From IMG/VR virus record IMGVR_UViG_2778261252_000011: a stretch of DNA of 42,392 nt, one strand, 5' to 3'. The notes under the pieces were generated by a model. The model was not told the DNA's origin. It ran no database searches and saw only the letters and a program-made list of their open reading frames with translations. Positions 2,795 through 17,241 of the stretch are shown piece after piece. The position numbers were made by a program, and so were the translations under genes. How positions within the stretch are numbered: position 1 is the first letter of the stretch; each line of letters opens with the position of its first letter. The stretch comes from a virus. Taxonomy: Duplodnaviria > Heunggongvirae > Uroviricota > Caudoviricetes.

Positions 2795-5387
2795 TTGCAT
2801 ATTCCTTAGCCCAGCGGGGCAGTGATAATGTCTTAATAGCTGGCCATTCATCGGTATTCAGGCAGTCAGACAGGGTTCGCAGATTGCGGTGATATTCCTG
2901 TTGACCTGCCAGTTTTGCTTCTTCGCCCATCATGAAAATTTCAACCGGATAACGTCCGCATTCAATAGTTGTGCTGGCAACCAGAAAAACGAAAGTTGGC
3001 TGCACTCCAAACTGTGCTTCATAACCGTCACTGTAGAATGCATCCTGAACGTGATAGCGGTAGTCGTAATAAGCGGTTTTGAATCGTTGAATATCCGCCG
3101 TAGTTTTCACGTCCATGATCCAGTGAAATTCAGGGATAATTTTGTCCGGACGGCACCGACACAAAATTCCTGTTTCAGGATCTTCCCAGTAAATTGATGA
3201 TTCAGCGTGTCCGGCGCTTTCAACAAGCCATTGCCCCAGCGGCAAAGCCATAACGCTTTGATACATGAGTTCAATTTTCCGGCCTTCTTCCGCAGTGATA
3301 ACCGTTTTTCCTGTGCTTGCGCATTCCATCAGAAACGCTTTCTCTTCTTCTTTTCCGGCGTTTGTACGGCGGTTAAATTCAGGTGCTACGATAAAGCGGT
3401 TACTGAATTCTTCCGGTTCAAGTACCCGGCAGTGGAAAGCAGTTCCTAAATCGAGCGTTTTTGTCTTTGTGGTGTCCACGGGGGCATTTTTACGCCACAA
3501 ATATAGTGCCGGAGTATCAGCAATGTCATCGAGCTGAGACTTACTGATACCGGGACCCGCGTGGTAATTCTCATTCGAAATTCCGTAATAAATACCTGGC
3601 TCTATGTCTTCTACGATTACGGGATCTGCGACTTCGCCAGTTTCATCACTGCAATCGTGATGCGGATCGCTGCCAGCATTCTCATTGTGCGGATGTTCAG
3701 CGCCTTCCATTTCCTCCGGATCATTTTCCTTAGCTTCAACCTGACTCTCTTCATCGAATGTTTCCTGGTATGTTGCGTCGCCCATCACCGCACCACAGTC
3801 AGGGCAGTTATCCCCGCCAGTCTGGCCGCAGGCATTGCAGGCTATTTCCGGTTCCTGTTGCACTACTGGCTCAGGTTGATTCATATCTGGGCTGGTTTTT
3901 TCCGTTTCTGGCTGGTTCTGGTACACACAATCGCGAGTCTGGATCCCCTTTACCCATTTCGGATCGTTCGGGTCGCTAATTCCGTCAACAAATTCACCAC
4001 GTGATGCAGCAAGCAATTTATCGGCATCGACAGGATTTTTTGATGGAATGTTTTTCCGGGCTTCATGGAGTTCTGCCCGCAGTTCCTGATATTTCGCATC
4101 AACAGAATTTACCTGTGACTGAGCATCCAGCGGCTGCGTGTCCTGATGATGTTCAGTTGCGTCCGGTTCCATTGTTTCAGCCTCTCCCTGTTCAACTGCC
4201 GTTGTTCCAGATGGTTGCGGTTTTTCTTCATCATCCTGTTTTCCTTCTTCTGTTACTCGCTGCGGCATCGGGGCAGAGGAGCGACCGCAGGCAATATCCA
4301 CGATTTCCGGATCAGGGTTGGCATGATCGGTTTCAGTCAGTACTTTGTTCAGATATTCAGTGACGTGCGCGGGGATGACCTCGATCCCAATTGGTGCTTC
4401 TTTTACGGACGCAACCACGATGGCGCGGGAATAATCCAGCCCGCCAGGCATGGTGATGAATTTGTCGCGGAAAACAGAAAAGGGCGGTTTATTTTCAGCG
4501 ATAATTTCCTCAATGCGTTTAGCGTGTGCCGGATGAAGGTTATAGATGTCCAGATCCATTGAACGGGCCAGTACGCCAGTGGCTACGTCGCGCGCCAGTG
4601 ACGTCAGATCGTGTACGAAACCTTCGCCGCGATCGGTGAGGTTTCCGCCGCCAGCATTAGCACCGGAAGCCGTGCGAGTGATGTGTGAAACACGATTACC
4701 CTTCATCCACTCTTTTGTCAGCAGTCCTCGATCGGTGTAGTCAGCGTTCAGGTATGCTTCGAAAAAAGCAGTTATCAGTCCCAGGTTTGAATTACCAGGA
4801 TTAGGGAAAACTTTGTCAGTGTCACGAACCAGTTTGTGGAGTTCGCGAATTTCCAGCGGGTCGAGCAGGCTGGTTTTGTGGGAAACAGCCAGGGCAGTAA
4901 CAGCCGGTAGTTCTTCAGCCCGAGCAATGTGTAATGCCTGGAGTCCGTCGCGTGAAACGTGCGTTACCGGTTTTTCGCTGCCGTGTTGAGCAAGCCAACG
5001 AATGGGCAGTTCCTGGCCAGAAATTGGGAGTAGCATATTCTCCTCAATCTCAGTCATGTCTTCGCCGTTGACGTTGGTATTGCCTTGATAATGAGCGTTG
5101 TCTGGTGCTGCTCCCGGTTTTAGTTCCCATGTCATGGAGTCTTTGCTGAGTTGATAGCGTTCACTCCAGGTAAAATCGATCTCACCTTCAGCGGGCAGGT
5201 CATTAACGACAGGAAAATTCGTGGCAACAGCTTTAAAATAGCTGCTCAGTTTTTTACCTGACTTAACGATCAGGTAGTCCAGAGTGGCACAGGTCGATTC
5301 AAAATCGTTGCTTGCCCACAGGACGACGTCAGGTTCACCGGATGATTTTTTCGCTTTCCGTAACAGGAAGAGTGGTTTTGTGCTCAT
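2787..5387 (-). CDS. recE: RecE exodeoxyribonuclease VIII (866 aa)
   Basis: 866-aa ORF upstream of and overlapping recT; size and context match Rac recE. Many antisense ORFs lie inside it and are rejected. Confidence 0.9.
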
Positions 5388-6009: not shown

Positions 6010-6230
6010 CACCATGACTCCGCCTTTACAGGTAAACCATCACGACCGAGGAAGACTTTAATCATGCGGTCAGTAATGCATGTTTTTGTGGTCAGGTTAC
6101 GAATATATAGTTTTCGCTTTTTAATATTGTTTGCCGAGGCAATATATGTCCGGCCTTCATGAAGAACATAATCGCCAGGAGTCACACACTGACGTGGTAT
6201 TTCATCAGTTCCGAAGTGATGTGCAATCAT
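6009..6230 (-). CDS. kilR: KilR cell-division (FtsZ) inhibitor (73 aa)
   Basis: Translation [46 protein letters not shown]... matches Rac KilR. Confidence 0.8.
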
Positions 6231-6671
6231 AATTATCTCCATTTTTACAAATGAACTTTGTTGATGCGGTGCCTGGTGCCTCCAGGTGACTGCAACCAGT
6301 TAACAATTACAGTCGGCTTTCCCACCCAAACCAATAAGGACTAACATGACTTTTAACTGTGCCACGTGCGCTTAGCCGCATTCACCGCATCACAAAATTC
6401 ACTTTAAAAAGGGCGGACATCAGCCGAACTTCAAGAAAAAAACTGATGCCGCCAGGACTACACACAGCAATGTCGTTATTTACAACCGGAGGCGCACTCC
6501 CACCATTTAAATTTAACAGACAAGACCGACTCTTTATGGATATCGGAAATGCGCCTTCGTGTTGTGCCCGGTTTTATTTCACCACCTCCGGGCTTCGGTG
6601 GTCTCGGCTATACCCCTACAGCGAGAGCTTGTGTTAACATTTCAATACCCTTACAGTTGAGAGTTATTGAT

Positions 6672-7160
6672 ATGTTGGATGTATTTACTCCATTGTTGAA
6701 ACTTTTTGCTAACGAGCCACTCGAAAGACTTATGTATACGATTATCATTTTTGGTCTCACTCTCTGGCTGATACCGAAAGAGTTTACTGCCGCATTCAAT
6801 GCTTATACTGAAATACCTTGGCTCTTTCAGATTATCGTTTTTGCCTTTTCTTTCGTGGTCGCCATTTCCTTCTCAAGATTGCGAGCACATATTCAAAAGC
6901 ATTATTCATTACTACCAGAGCAACGAGTATTGCTTCGTTTATCTGAGAAAGAAATCGCTGTATTTAAAGATTTCCTTAAAACAGGAAATCTTATTATCAC
7001 TTCTCCTTGCCGTAACCCGGTTATGAAAAAATTAGAACGGAAGGGCATCATTCAACATCAGAGTGATAGCGCAAACTGTTCTTATTATCTCGTCACCGAA
7101 AAATACTCCCATTTTATGAAGTTATTCTGGAACAGCAGGAGTAGACGTTTTAATCGTTAG
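6672..7160 (+). CDS. sieB: SieB superinfection-exclusion protein (162 aa, membrane)
   Basis: Translation MLDVFTPLLKLFANEPLERLMYTIIIFGLTLWLIPKEF...; internal Met of the 203-aa ORF; hydrophobic N-terminal segments. Confidence 0.85.
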   Translation: MLDVFTPLLKLFANEPLERLMYTIIIFGLTLWLIPKEFTAAFNAYTEIPWLFQIIVFAFSFVVAISFSRLRAHIQKHYSLLPEQRVLLRLSEKEIAVFKDFLKTGNLIITSPCRNPVMKKLERKGIIQHQSDSANCSYYLVTEKYSHFMKLFWNSRSRRFNR

Positions 7161-7312
7161 CTTACTGTGTGCTTCTCCAACCATCGGCGCGCACCAGTTT
7201 CGGTTTTAAATGTTTTGCTTTTGGTATACGTCATGGCAGTGAACGTTCCATCCTGGTTGGGGAACACGCCGCACACCAGGGATTCGTTGTTGCCGAGGTC
7301 GATTTTTTGCAT
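7157..7312 (-). CDS. ydaF: YdaF-like small protein (51 aa)
   Basis: Hand translation MQKIDLGNNESLVCGVFPNQDGTFTAMTYTKSKTFKTETGARRWLEKHTVS; 4-nt overlap with the sieB end; the name is assigned by position and size only. Confidence 0.4.
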   Translation of the reverse strand: MQKIDLGNNESLVCGVFPNQDGTFTAMTYTKSKTFKTETGARRWLEKHTVS

Positions 7313-12734: not shown

Positions 12735-13508
12735 TTAGAACTGTTCATTGCCATCGAGGTTAGGTAGCATAATTTTTTCAATCAAGGCGAGAGCCTTTTT
12801 GTCCCGGTCAGCGAAGTATTTCGGGGCATATTGCGGCAACCAAATATTGTTAAAATGTTCTTTGAAATCTGCTAAATATTCATTTGGGTACAGCCTTGCA
12901 GGGTATACGCGACCATCGGGATATTCATGGTCATAGGTAGGGAATGTTTTGGGTTCTACGTTTCTATTATCTCTTAACCATTGTGAAAATACTCTTCCTT
13001 GTGAAATGTCAGGAACCATTTTTTCTGGGAGTGTGTACCCTGCTTGTTCAAGAGGTGCAACCAAGTTGAATGTCAGTTCATTAAGAATAGAAAAGTGCGT
13101 GTGAGGAATTCTACTACGATTAACCATGTACCGTTTTAAATGTACAGGCATTTCTGCTGTAGTTCTTTCCCCTGACATCCATTCACGAACCCATCTTGAA
13201 ACCTGGACTGCAAATTTGGGCGATAGCCACTGCGCTAGATTAATAGCGATGTCAGGATGCACCCATGTCCCTTGGTTTTCAGGTCTTCCACCTTTAAATG
13301 ATTGAATTAACTCCGATATGGGAATTCCCATATCGCGTGATAATTCGTCAAAAAACTCTTGAGTAGTTTTGAGTCTAGTGTAATCAGAGAGCAGTTTGCC
13401 CGCAGTTCTACACATTGATGTGGCGTTTATGTAACCATCTTTGGCACGTAAATGTATTATTTCGCCGTCAATTTCACGAGAAATCAAAGATAATTGAAAG
13501 GATGTCAT
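12735..13508 (-). CDS. KilA-N domain protein (257 aa), opposite-strand moron
   Basis: N-terminal segment IHLRAKDGYINATSMCRTAGK... reads as a KilA-N/APSES-type domain; GAGGAA Shine-Dalgarno; transcribed against the flanking operons. Confidence 0.75.
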   Translation of the reverse strand: MTSFQLSLISREIDGEIIHLRAKDGYINATSMCRTAGKLLSDYTRLKTTQEFFDELSRDMGIPISELIQSFKGGRPENQGTWVHPDIAINLAQWLSPKFAVQVSRWVREWMSGERTTAEMPVHLKRYMVNRSRIPHTHFSILNELTFNLVAPLEQAGYTLPEKMVPDISQGRVFSQWLRDNRNVEPKTFPTYDHEYPDGRVYPARLYPNEYLADFKEHFNNIWLPQYAPKYFADRDKKALALIEKIMLPNLDGNEQF

Positions 13509-13856: not shown

Positions 13857-14030
13857 TGCTGTGGGTGCTTGAGGCTATCTGCCTCGGGCATGAACACCAA
13901 AGGTAGATAGAGAAAAGCCCCAGTTAACATTACGCGTCCTGCAAGACGTTTAACATTAATCTGAGGCCATATCTATGCGACACATAGAGATTAGCCTCTT
14001 ACGGACCGAAAGGTCAAGGAGAAGCAGGCT

Positions 14031-14156
14031 ATGAAGCAGCAAAAGGCGATGTTAATCGCCCTGATCGTCATCTGTTTAACCGTCATAGTGACGGCACTGG
14101 TAACGAGGAAATACCTCTGCGAGGTACGAATCCGAACTGGCAGACGGAGGCTCTGA
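14031..14156 (+). CDS. Hok/Gef-family type I toxin, C-terminally truncated or divergent (41 aa); possible frameshifted allele
   Basis: Translation MKQQKAMLIALIVICLTVIVTALVTRKYLCEVRIRTGRRRL; the family-typical C-terminal segment is absent; a 19-codon mok-like upstream ORF (13975-14034) overlaps the start. Confidence 0.6.
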   Translation: MKQQKAMLIALIVICLTVIVTALVTRKYLCEVRIRTGRRRL

Positions 14157-14238
14157 TTCGTAGACTACTAATCTGAGTAAAAGACCCAGCGGGGAAAGAA
14201 CCACGCCGGGACTAGTTAATAAGATATTTATAGCGTGG

Positions 14239-14580
14239 CTATTCTTTTTTTGCGGTATAGACTTTTTCGCCTGAGAAGTCTGGAGCTACCCAAAAGTTAA
14301 TATTAAACTGAGCATCATCGCTTAGTTCAACACGGTGCCAGTATTGTGGTGGGCTTGTTGCAAAAGCGCCAGCATTAATGACTACTTTTATCTCCGGTTC
14401 AGTAGCATTCTCATCAGCAAAACCATAATATGTTACAGTACCTTCCATCACGCATAACTGTCCAAAAACACCTGCTGCTGTATTATGATGTGTTAATAAC
14501 GCTGAAGGTACGTTCTCTTTTGTGAAGAACGGAGTTGAGCGTTTGATTACCCAGTCTTTAGGAATTCTCTTGTGTGTCAT
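14239..14580 (-). CDS. YeaR-like DUF1971 protein (113 aa)
   Basis: Translation MTHKRIPKDWVIKRSTPFFTKENVPSALL... resembles E. coli YeaR as I recall it; GGAGGTGG Shine-Dalgarno upstream of ATG 14580. Confidence 0.65.
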   Translation of the reverse strand: MTHKRIPKDWVIKRSTPFFTKENVPSALLTHHNTAAGVFGQLCVMEGTVTYYGFADENATEPEIKVVINAGAFATSPPQYWHRVELSDDAQFNINFWVAPDFSGEKVYTAKKE

Positions 14581-15447
14581 AACCACCTCCCATAAAACAT
14601 GCATTATAAATGCACCCTTTTGAGGGTTATGTCAAACTGTTATGAAACACATAATTGATATGTTGATTAGAGGAGAAGATAGAATCAATATGGTTGTTTT
14701 TCGTATAACTATTTGTTTTACTTTTAGTTTGTGCATTCTGTGTGTTAGGAATAACTTATTAAAGTTTAACTAAAAAATCTCGATATAGTCCGCATAGATT
14801 ACTGTTACTGAATCTTATTGTGTGCATTAGTTGTGTTCTGAAATTTCAATTTAATTACTTATGATATATTTTTAACGATAAATGTTTTCCGGGTGAAAGA
14901 CAGTGGGGGATGAGATAAGCAATATATCATTAATCTTGATTATTTCCAGGATGCCTTTACTGTGCATATAAATAAATCATATACGCATCAAATAATGTAA
15001 AGGCATCCTTTTAGATATATCTTATCAAATGTTAATGATTTGAGTGGGAAACATGATTCCAGAAACTAATCATGCGGCTACTTTATAAAAATAATGCCCA
15101 TATAAAACAGCCAGCGAAAAGGATTACGGATAAAAAAGGAGCGAGATGTGCATAGTTGTTATTTTCCATGTTTAACCACCTTAAATAATTGATGATGACG
15201 GGATGTGCATCTGTAATGCTTTTGTTGAAATGTTATGATAAAAAAGAACTTTTTCATAACATTAAAATGTAATTTATCTAATCGTTTTTAATAATAAGTG
15301 TTGTATTTCTATCCTTGTATCAGCTATTTGATATGTAGTGTTTGTTCATGTTATGTGGAGCTTTACACCATAGCCAGTTTATTTATACTTTATTCGTCAG
15401 CCTGAACAACTGGCATCTGCTGCACTGCGCCATCGAGAGATTGAGAA

Positions 15448-16047
15448 ATGGCGCATATACAACTGGTCAAACAAACCTCTTCTGGACTACTTCTCCCGGC
15501 GACGCCGGAGAGTTGCGATTTTTTGCATCAAATCAAAATAGGCGAGTGGATACACGCAGACTTTAAGCGTGTGCGTAACTACGCATTCCACAAGCGTTTT
15601 TTCAAACTCCTGCAACTGGGATTCGATTACTGGACTCCGGTCGGTGGGGCGATCACGCCTCGCGAACGAAAGCTGGTTTCAGGATTCGTTGATTACCTAT
15701 GTGAATCAGTAGGCCGGGAACATACGCCAGCTCTGAGCGAAGCCGCAGAGCAATATCTGAATACAGTTGCGACACGCAGAACCCGGGATACGGCATTGCT
15801 AAAGTCGTTTGAGGCTTTTCGCGAGTGGGTAACCATTCAGGCTGGATTTTACACCGAACATTTTTATCCGGACGGTAGCCGCGGGCGTCGGGCAAAATCT
15901 ATCGCTTTTGCGAATATGGACGAAACCGAGTTTCAGCAGGTTTATAAATCTGTTCTGAATGTGCTGTGGAACTGGATTCTGTTCCGTAAATTTTCCTCTC
16001 CGGAACAAGTCGAAAATGTGGCCGCGCAGCTGCTGGAGTTTGCGTAA
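15448..16047 (+). CDS. Nin-region phage protein (199 aa), possibly DUF1367-like
   Basis: First gene after the AT-rich island, directly upstream of the YbcO-like gene; family name is tentative. Confidence 0.55.
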   Translation: MAHIQLVKQTSSGLLLPATPESCDFLHQIKIGEWIHADFKRVRNYAFHKRFFKLLQLGFDYWTPVGGAITPRERKLVSGFVDYLCESVGREHTPALSEAAEQYLNTVATRRTRDTALLKSFEAFREWVTIQAGFYTEHFYPDGSRGRRAKSIAFANMDETEFQQVYKSVLNVLWNWILFRKFSSPEQVENVAAQLLEFA

Positions 16048-16876: not shown

Positions 16877-16961
16877 TTTTTTACGCATAAACTGCTTCAA
16901 TTTTGCTACGCTTCGCAAAGCTGTATCGCGAGGCGAATCAAGCGCAATTAAACTTTAATAG

Positions 16962-16989
16962 AACCCGCCATCAAGCGGGTTTTGTTGTT
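16962..16989 (+). terminator. Intrinsic terminator after the Q-like gene
   Basis: Stem AACCCGC / GCGGGTT with loop CATCAA, followed by TTGTTGTT. Confidence 0.5.
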
Positions 16990-17121
16990 ATTGTGGTGTG
17001 ATATAAGAAACGACATTTAATATTGCCTTCAAAATAAATTTGTTTATATATTGTCGCGTATATTTTAAGTGAAGGTGAAATGTTCACATAAAATAAAAAT
17101 ACATAAATAAATTTACATAGC

Positions 17122-17150
17122 TTGACGCAAAGTGTTGTTGCGATTGGAAT
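17122..17150 (+). promoter_or_regulatory. Candidate late promoter (PR'-like): -35 TTGACG, weak -10 TGGAAT
   Basis: Read directly; the -10 is a poor match, so this is tentative. Confidence 0.3.
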
Positions 17151-17241
17151 ATTAAATTGTATCATCGAAAACGGTTCTGAGGGGGAACTCTTCTTTGCTC
17201 GGTGATATCGCTCGGTGATATCGCTCCCCTGAAGAACCAAT

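Follow-up and report, generated by a model that had tools for sequence, protein, structure and literature searches.

The stretch analysed here is the 42,392-nucleotide viral record IMGVR_UViG_2778261252_000011 (referred to as the window), and its part of interest is the gap that separates the minus-strand DUF1971 (YeaR-like) gene from the plus-strand DUF1367 gene. To judge from its sequence, the window is a Rac-like lambdoid prophage of Escherichia coli. An earlier note, made from the letters alone, had singled out 843 bp of the gap as an AT-rich island without a long open reading frame (ORF); these 843 bp match the E. coli VE-V10-F chromosome at 100% identity and three induced E. coli phages at 99.6%. 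The island was confirmed, with a GC content of 0.27–0.33 in 200-nt sub-windows over 14600–15399 and of 0.40–0.53 in the flanks. RefSeq places the start of the DUF1971 gene at 14580, so that the intergenic interval proper is 14581–15447, and no feature is annotated in it by RefSeq in the 100% identical genome. The statement that neither strand carries an ORF of at least 60 amino acids (aa) is essentially correct, the one exception being a TTG-started 74-aa frame (15342..15566) that extends into the DUF1367 gene.

Our preferred reading, to which we give a probability of about 0.6, is that four kinds of element make up the gap as a mosaic, mostly ordinary control DNA for the flanking genes, and that it is not one functional unit. 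Its anatomy, conservation, coding signature, and covariation were observed directly, while transcripts, binding of NsrR, termination by the hairpin, insertion of the peptide into the membrane, and a function of the peptide are predictions. Some part of the gap was matched by ~1041 of 5426 complete E. coli genomes and at least 80% of it by 463; roughly 100 strains show an identity of 99% or more. Its right part (15082–15447) recurs at ~76% identity in about another third of the matching genomes, where it comes immediately after the terminator of hokD or that of the defence gene iteS. The left part (14605–15081) is restricted to the first group of genomes and is absent from these 76%-identity recurrences. 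When the window was compared with an intact hokD locus, homology ended at 14150 and restarted at 15082, and in another strain the segment from ~14621 on sits behind a NACHT gene, without the DUF1971 gene, which sets a left break near 14621. These homology breaks divide the region into three layers: the DUF1971 cassette (~14151–14620), an independent AT-rich segment (14621–15081), and a backbone segment (15082–15447). The gap would thus be a mosaic junction in a cargo hot spot with the replication genes on one side and the DUF1367-DUF1364-DUF1133 operon on the other, and the AT-rich segment would travel without being tied to the YeaR-like gene. When distant relatives of the left segment were sought by DNA searches among phages and plasmids, only near-identical copies came up, and no homologue was found in the Qin prophage of K-12. 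The arrangement resembles the 'moron' cassettes of prophages and the cargo and defence hot spot that lambdoid phages have between the replication genes and nin/Q, in that a cargo gene with its own promoter is inserted between backbone genes and that hok/sok, IteAS, NACHT, QueH or the YeaR-like gene occupies the same place in different strains. It differs in that the 28-codon ORF described below and the operon promoter lie on the backbone's side of the junction and are not part of the exchangeable cargo.

The backbone segment contains an unannotated 28-codon ORF on the minus strand (ORF28), which is probably a real small gene for a small membrane protein, as far as can be judged from its sequence and variation. 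Copies were collected with an IMG/VR pattern inside the ORF, by a peptide-pattern scan of metagenomes, and with an IMG/VR pattern outside the ORF; the last was meant to avoid the selection of intact copies and gave ~34 copies. ORF28 was exactly 28 codons long in all 235 complete homologous copies recovered (23 nucleotide variants, 17 alleles), every one of which retained the Shine-Dalgarno (SD) sequence, the start, and the stop; start, stop, and length were also the same in the 76%-identity class. No other small ORF in the gap has both a constant start and a constant length, and none of those in 14621–15081 keeps them across variants. In an alignment of 27 sequences, the variable sites of ORF28 fell on codon positions 1/2/3 in the proportion 5/6/12, and the fraction of variable columns was 0.26 in ORF28 versus 0.59–0.86 in its flanks. 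Between the classes there were several insertions or deletions in the flanks and none in ORF28. The ratio of non-synonymous to synonymous polymorphism (pN/pS) was ~0.36, and 0.32–0.53 when the allele of the window was compared with those of the 76%-identity class, values of modest strength that derive from few independent events. The duplex of the SD sequence with the 3' end of 16S rRNA was calculated at −8.4 kcal/mol, with pairing that stops 4 nt before the AUG.

A minimum spanning tree of ORF28 contained 28 synonymous and 30 non-synonymous changes where the expected synonymous share is 0.20, a count that may include recombinant changes twice and be inflated to that extent. This possible inflation weighs against a gene, as do the confinement of ORF28 to prophages of E. 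coli, Shigella, and E. ruysiae in three to four sequence classes and the lack, among 1.84 billion protein representatives, of any homologue longer than its own 5'-extended call. Since the sequence classes are few, the selection tests rest on few independent changes. A HMMER search of the same 1.84 billion representatives with the 30-aa read-through of ORF28 returned only an over-called version of ORF28 itself (58 aa) and a single spurious repeat protein. The 28-aa sequence was absent by exact look-up from a collection of 15 billion proteins, and so had never been called as a protein; a literature search did not find it either. Comparison with Pfam, NCBIfam, PHROGs, and PADLOC, including the known type I toxin families, gave nothing below E 0.001. 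Gene callers would be expected to overlook an ORF as short as these 28 aa.

The peptide has a polar N-terminus followed by a 19-residue hydrophobic C-terminal stretch, with a mean hydropathy of +2.3 over residues 10–28. It would most likely be a small inner-membrane protein made from the prophage, with a single transmembrane helix at the C-terminus behind a polar head; it might serve as a toxin, as an exclusion factor, or to modulate a membrane protein of the host. If ORF28 is translated, roughly one in seven sequenced E. coli genomes carries an unannotated membrane peptide, located in a prophage hot spot for defence and toxin genes. Antisense to ORF28, the plus strand at 15136–15175 has a strong SD sequence (AAGGAG) and an ATG at 15146 that opens a 9-codon ORF; its counterpart in the 76%-identity class has 12 codons and a different sequence. 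Its presence is probably a side effect of the Ala-Pro-Phe codons that the opposite strand carries.

ORF28 would have its own SD sequence, a leader of ~115 nt with a conserved hairpin, and a promoter placed back-to-back with that of the DUF1367 operon. The eight pairs of the leader hairpin are kept in the 27 sequences, and the minus-strand fold has a z of −3.4. The only variable pair switches from G-C to G-U, which is tolerated in a minus-strand RNA only, and thus the hairpin fits a minus-strand RNA. The candidate −10 element TATTAT is invariant in the alignment, and TTG(C/T)TG accompanies it at a spacing of 16–18 nt in the 76%-identity class. Against this promoter, an insertion of 8 nt separates the candidate −35 from the −10 element in the class of the window and leaves the −35 mis-spaced, and the assignment is tentative for this reason. 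A long-range pairing with the SD sequence proposed by RNAalifold was dropped because its upstream partner precedes the likely transcription start. In some strains an insertion sequence of the IS3 family lies at the equivalent of ~15330 (in locus L111 from ~1017; in L293 at 6062–7290), exactly between the presumed promoter of ORF28 and that of the DUF1367 operon.

The earlier note had considered an H-NS-silenced promoter region as one possible role of the island, and the promoter part of this is borne out at its two ends, which hold promoter and operator DNA of the flanking genes (an NsrR-type operator at 14596–14618 and the promoter TTTACA-16-TATACT at 15362–15389). On the right, the latter is the best promoter match in the region. 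It is invariant across the E. coli classes, and a −10 element is found at the same place upstream of DUF1367 in distant prophages. The 80 nt upstream of the DUF1367 genes were compared in 27 diverse enterobacterial loci, which include E. coli, E. ruysiae, Salmonella, Citrobacter, Pantoea, Serratia, Kluyvera, Leclercia, Siccibacter, and others. This comparison revealed two leader hairpins (HP1 and HP2). HP1 begins 7–10 nt after the −10 element; its stem varies and covaries, with four pairs changed on both sides in 6–10 sequences each, and its loop is constant (YCUGAACAR). In HP2, whose 3' arm UGGCGCA starts within the start codon, 96.8% of the cells were paired, with a compensatory change from C-G to U-A in four sequences and from G-C to A-U in one. 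Taken together, 88.9% of the cells of the two hairpins were paired, compared with 23–37% when the partners were slid, and 43 cells had changes on both sides versus 14.5 in shuffles, none of 500 shuffles reaching 43. A covariance model of HP1 found one copy in the window (33.6 bits). Neither hairpin had an Rfam match, and the pair might deserve to be described as a separate RNA motif (loci L007–L045 at ~2930–3010).

The control region of the DUF1367 operon (15362–15455) would accordingly be read as a sigma-70 promoter, a hairpin at the 5' end of the transcript, and a second hairpin that holds the start codon. The obvious options for the role of HP1 are a stabilising 5' cap or a protein-binding site. 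HP1 is similar to the lambda nut boxB, the put RNAs of HK022, and 5'-stabilising hairpins such as that of the ompA mRNA in being promoter-proximal and in combining a variable, covarying stem with a conserved loop. It differs in having a loop of 7–9 nt by covariation and not a GNRA-like pentaloop, with no boxA upstream, and in occurring as one copy per prophage, before the DUF1367 operon and not behind the early promoters. A reading of the conserved leader block as boxA/nut was rejected because the order of the elements is wrong. The covarying leader hairpin offers a testable handle on the control of a widespread prophage operon that includes the Q-like DUF1133 protein.

At the left end of the gap, the DUF1971 gene encodes a protein with 44% identity to YeaR of K-12 (E 3e-32), and an 11-1-11 palindrome of the NsrR type lies just upstream of it. 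This operator is the sole match to AANATGCATTTNAAATGCATNTT at up to 3 mismatches in the 42-kb window (it has 3), where 0.01 is expected by chance, and its allelic variants are nearer the consensus, with 1–2 mismatches (e.g., AAGATGCATTTTTAATGCATCTT). The palindrome encloses a perfect −10 element, TATAAT (14608..14603), which precedes the DUF1971 start codon by 22 nt and would set a predicted transcription start that leaves a leader of ~16 nt. The sequence TTGACA is found at 14635..14630, and the 21 nt that separate these perfect −35 and −10 elements count against the promoter as drawn.

Experimentally supported NsrR sites are known for ytfE (AAGATGCATTTAAAATGCATCTT), ygbA (AAGGTGCATTTATATTACAACTT), and yeaR (AAATGGTATTTAAAATGCAAATT) (PMC5320621), and the yeaR-yoaG promoter of E. 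coli K-12 is repressed by NsrR and activated by NarL (Lin et al. 2007, cited in PMC5320621). We found the listed yeaR site upstream of K-12 yeaR. The prophage locus is like yeaR-yoaG in having a DUF1971/YeaR homologue downstream of the palindrome. Sequence comparison also showed that a partial palindrome, ACCCT-N4-AGGGT, abuts the prophage operator; we take its K-12 counterpart to be a NarL 7-2-7 site. The prophage copy differs from yeaR-yoaG in that it is carried on a cargo cassette, lacks the yoaG partner, has the short leader given above, and has an operator that overlaps a perfect −10 element. From these sequences we infer that the control region from 14581 to ~14620 would place an NsrR-type operator over the −10 element, and that the prophage gene may be controlled by NsrR and, as chromosomal yeaR is, induced under stress from nitric oxide or nitrate, with NsrR and NarL binding as predictions. 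The operator suggests a link of this prophage cargo gene to the nitric-oxide response of the host.

Table 1. Positions of the features in and around the gap (numbering of the window).
Feature	Position	Strand	Remarks
AT-rich intergenic gap	14581..15447	none	between the DUF1971 (minus) and DUF1367 (plus) genes
DUF1971 / YeaR-like gene	14239..14580	minus	RefSeq; with its promoter forms the cargo cassette ~14151–14620
NsrR-type 11-1-11 operator (predicted)	14596..14618	minus	reads AGGGTGCATTTATAATGCATGTT on the strand of the gene
Plus-strand small ORF of the earlier note	14642..14773	plus	43 aa from the first ATG (14642); 27 aa from 14690
Long hairpin	14948..15013	plus	13-bp outer stem and inner stem, then TTTT; candidate intrinsic terminator
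ORF28 (unannotated, 28 codons)	15169..15083	minus	peptide MENNNYAHLAPFLSVILFAGCFIWALFL
SD sequence of ORF28	15176..15182	minus	AAGGTGG; conserved as AAGGTG, AAAGTG in one subclass
Hairpin in the presumed ORF28 5' leader	15229..15263	minus	conserved, 8 bp; stem AUGUUAUG / CAUAA(C/U)AU
TATTAT, candidate −10 of the ORF28 promoter	15291..15296	minus	invariant in the alignment; putative
Sigma-70 promoter of the DUF1367-DUF1364-DUF1133 operon	15362..15389	plus	TTTACA-16-TATACT; best promoter match in the region, 10/12
Leader hairpin HP1	15396..15414	plus	stem GUCAG / CUGGC, loop CCUGAACAA; predicted 5' end of the operon transcript
Leader hairpin HP2	15426..15455	plus	UGCGCCA (15426–15432) pairs with UGGCGCA (15449–15455); SD in the loop, start codon in the stem

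The AT-rich segment between these control regions contains the inverted repeat on which the earlier note had dwelt. The repeat is perfect as described, with 13-nt arms (14948–14960 and 14997–15009) that are 100% complementary, 36 nt apart, and followed by TTTT; the arms as typed in the note are 12 nt long. The folding z-score of the repeat was −5.1 on the plus and −5.5 on the minus strand, and no shuffled sequence folded as well. In a sliding fold scan of the gap, the repeat was the only place with z ≤ −4 on both strands. The folding energy is −23 kcal/mol in the window and between −16 and −28 kcal/mol in all seven variants, and the TTTT is invariant. The perfect form accounts for only ~1/5 of the copies. 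In the commonest form the outer stem has one mismatch and one wobble, and the inner stem has three changes that improve pairing; rare forms restore pairs, for example from G-C through A.C to A-U. The commonest variant of the segment also lacks 56 nt (14891–14946) immediately upstream of the repeat. A miniature transposable element was rejected as its origin because the repeat is present in a single copy per genome in 465 genomes.

The evidence weakly suggests that this hairpin is a plus-strand terminator, which takes the position held by the terminators of hok or iteS in prophages without this segment. With its TTTT, the structure at 14948–15013 would stop plus-strand transcription coming from the cargo side and so separate the cargo from ORF28. 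Several points count against termination: the run has only 4 U and follows a hairpin with a long, branched loop; in the commonest allele the outer stem is mismatched; a scan for consensus terminators did not call the hairpin, which it missed because the loop exceeds 8 nt; and in the window no plus-strand gene or promoter is established upstream of it.

A reading along the lines of the earlier note puts on the plus strand the gene of a small hydrophobic toxin (from 14642 or 14690 to 14773) or a small RNA, with the repeat at 14948–15013 as its terminator. We regard this as quite improbable. The ORF exists, with 27 codons from the ATG at 14690 to the stop at 14771–14773 and not 24 codons to 14764, and it encodes a 19-residue hydrophobic core between charged residues. 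On the same strand downstream there is the hairpin with its TTTT, a site at 14838–14865 matches a promoter at 9 of 12 positions, and the segment is 92–100% conserved and retained even without the YeaR-like gene. As a gene, however, this ORF was rejected: its length is 30, 43, 48, or 51 aa among the variants, its changes at codon positions 1/2/3 (8/5/8) show no third-position bias and thus no coding signature, and it has no usable SD, the only SD-like sequence (GAGGAG) lying 13 nt from the ATG at 14690 with none before 14642. An exact look-up found it in the 15-billion-protein collection only as "hypothetical protein", and scans of the other small ORFs of the gap against Pfam, NCBIfam, PHROGs, and PADLOC gave no match. 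Promoter-like sites numbered 4, compared with 6.6 expected in shuffled sequence. The suggestion of small RNAs fared no better. A scan of the gap with Rfam 15 gave no match at the gathering score and, at E up to 10, only chance hits to eukaryotic miRNAs and snoRNAs; no unusual structure was found in the gap beyond two hairpins; and the 56-nt deletion in the commonest variant would excise the middle of the only plausible promoter-to-hairpin transcript. What survives of the toxin idea is that a different hydrophobic ORF, ORF28 on the minus strand, passes the coding tests that the plus-strand ORF fails, which by itself does not imply toxicity.

It is somewhat less improbable, but still unlikely, that the gap is inert except for its two flanking promoters, being decayed, horizontally acquired AT-rich DNA that is probably coated by H-NS, and that ORF28 and the hairpin only seem conserved since the copies are recent relatives. 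The copies do come from one narrow clade without distant homologues, the segment 14621–15081 has no conserved ORF and tolerates the 56-nt deletion, and a GC content of ~0.29 is typical of xenogeneic DNA. Inert DNA would not explain why, between the 76%-identity classes, ORF28 is far less variable than its flanks and free of the insertions and deletions found there, nor the synonymous excess and the retention of SD, start, and stop throughout the recovered copies, and the variants of the long hairpin hold a similar stability through changes in both directions. A further alternative, which deserves slightly more weight although we would not bet on it, is that ORF28 is a type I toxin whose translation is restrained by an antisense or divergent small RNA, so that loss of the RNA would let the peptide depolarise the membrane; it would then stabilise the prophage or abort phage infection. 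Being hydrophobic and shorter than ~60 aa, with one hydrophobic helix in its 28 aa, ORF28 fits such toxins in size and shape. Its ~115-nt leader has the conserved hairpin and is in part more conserved than ORF28 itself, the SD sequence is mostly paired in predicted folds (probability unpaired 0.23–0.38), and the hot spot also holds hok/sok, a BstA-like gene, and elsewhere IteAS and a NACHT gene. Ibs, ShoB, TisB, DinQ, and ZorO of E. coli are very small membrane proteins, some of them type I toxins, and ORF28 shares with this set the single helix, the stand-alone gene, the long leader, and the location in a prophage. It differs from them in showing no sequence similarity, in having almost no positive charge, and in that no antitoxin RNA was found. 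There is no conserved plus-strand promoter opposite ORF28 or its leader, no complementary sequence elsewhere in the window beyond chance, and no Rfam hit in the gap; the database families named above gave no match, and the predicted partners that would sequester the SD sequence and the single-sequence folds of the leader differ between classes. Because neither a conserved antisense promoter nor a complementary sequence was found, the type I toxin is a minority view, and we return to the mosaic of mostly ordinary control DNA as the preferred reading.

Within that mosaic, we entertain as a speculation, doubtful though not far-fetched, that ORF28 founds a new family of 28-aa membrane peptides of Rac-like prophages (in an estimated ~15% of complete E. 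coli genomes) that act as toxin or as exclusion or defence factor and are transcribed back-to-back with the operon promoter, and that HP1 is an undescribed cis-regulatory RNA motif of the DUF1367-DUF1364-DUF1133 operon across Enterobacteriaceae. The new content is limited to ORF28 and the leader hairpin and is modestly novel; nothing is categorically new, and no part of the finding overturns current understanding.

The surroundings of the gap were taken from the RefSeq annotation of the identical genome. On the plus strand, ydaS, ydaT, and ydaV are followed by the DUF1627 and DUF977 genes; then come a KilA-N gene (minus), hok, the DUF1971 gene (minus), and the gap; and 3' of the gap lie the DUF1367, DUF1364, and DUF1133 genes (plus), followed by tRNAs and the lysis genes. 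The KilA-N protein (12735–13508, minus) matches the PADLOC model for BstA (E 3e-21). BstA is an abortive-infection defence protein of prophages, and with this match the interval from the replication genes to the DUF1367 operon looks like a hot spot for defence and cargo genes. Rfam places sok at 13863–14033. Compared with the intact hokD locus (L004), hok is truncated at its 3' end (14031–14156; homology break at 14150): the last ~35 nt of the ORF and the entire 3' untranslated region with its terminator are swapped for the DUF1971 cassette, which leaves a 41-aa product beside an intact sok RNA. The RalA antitoxin RNA of the RalR/RalA system was detected at 1557–1735 (Rfam, 225 bits), which fits the Rac-like identity of the prophage. 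A second AT-rich stretch (16900–17200, GC ~0.29) lies between the DUF1133 (Q-like) gene and a tRNA-Thr/tRNA-Gly pair, at the location where a late promoter would be expected.

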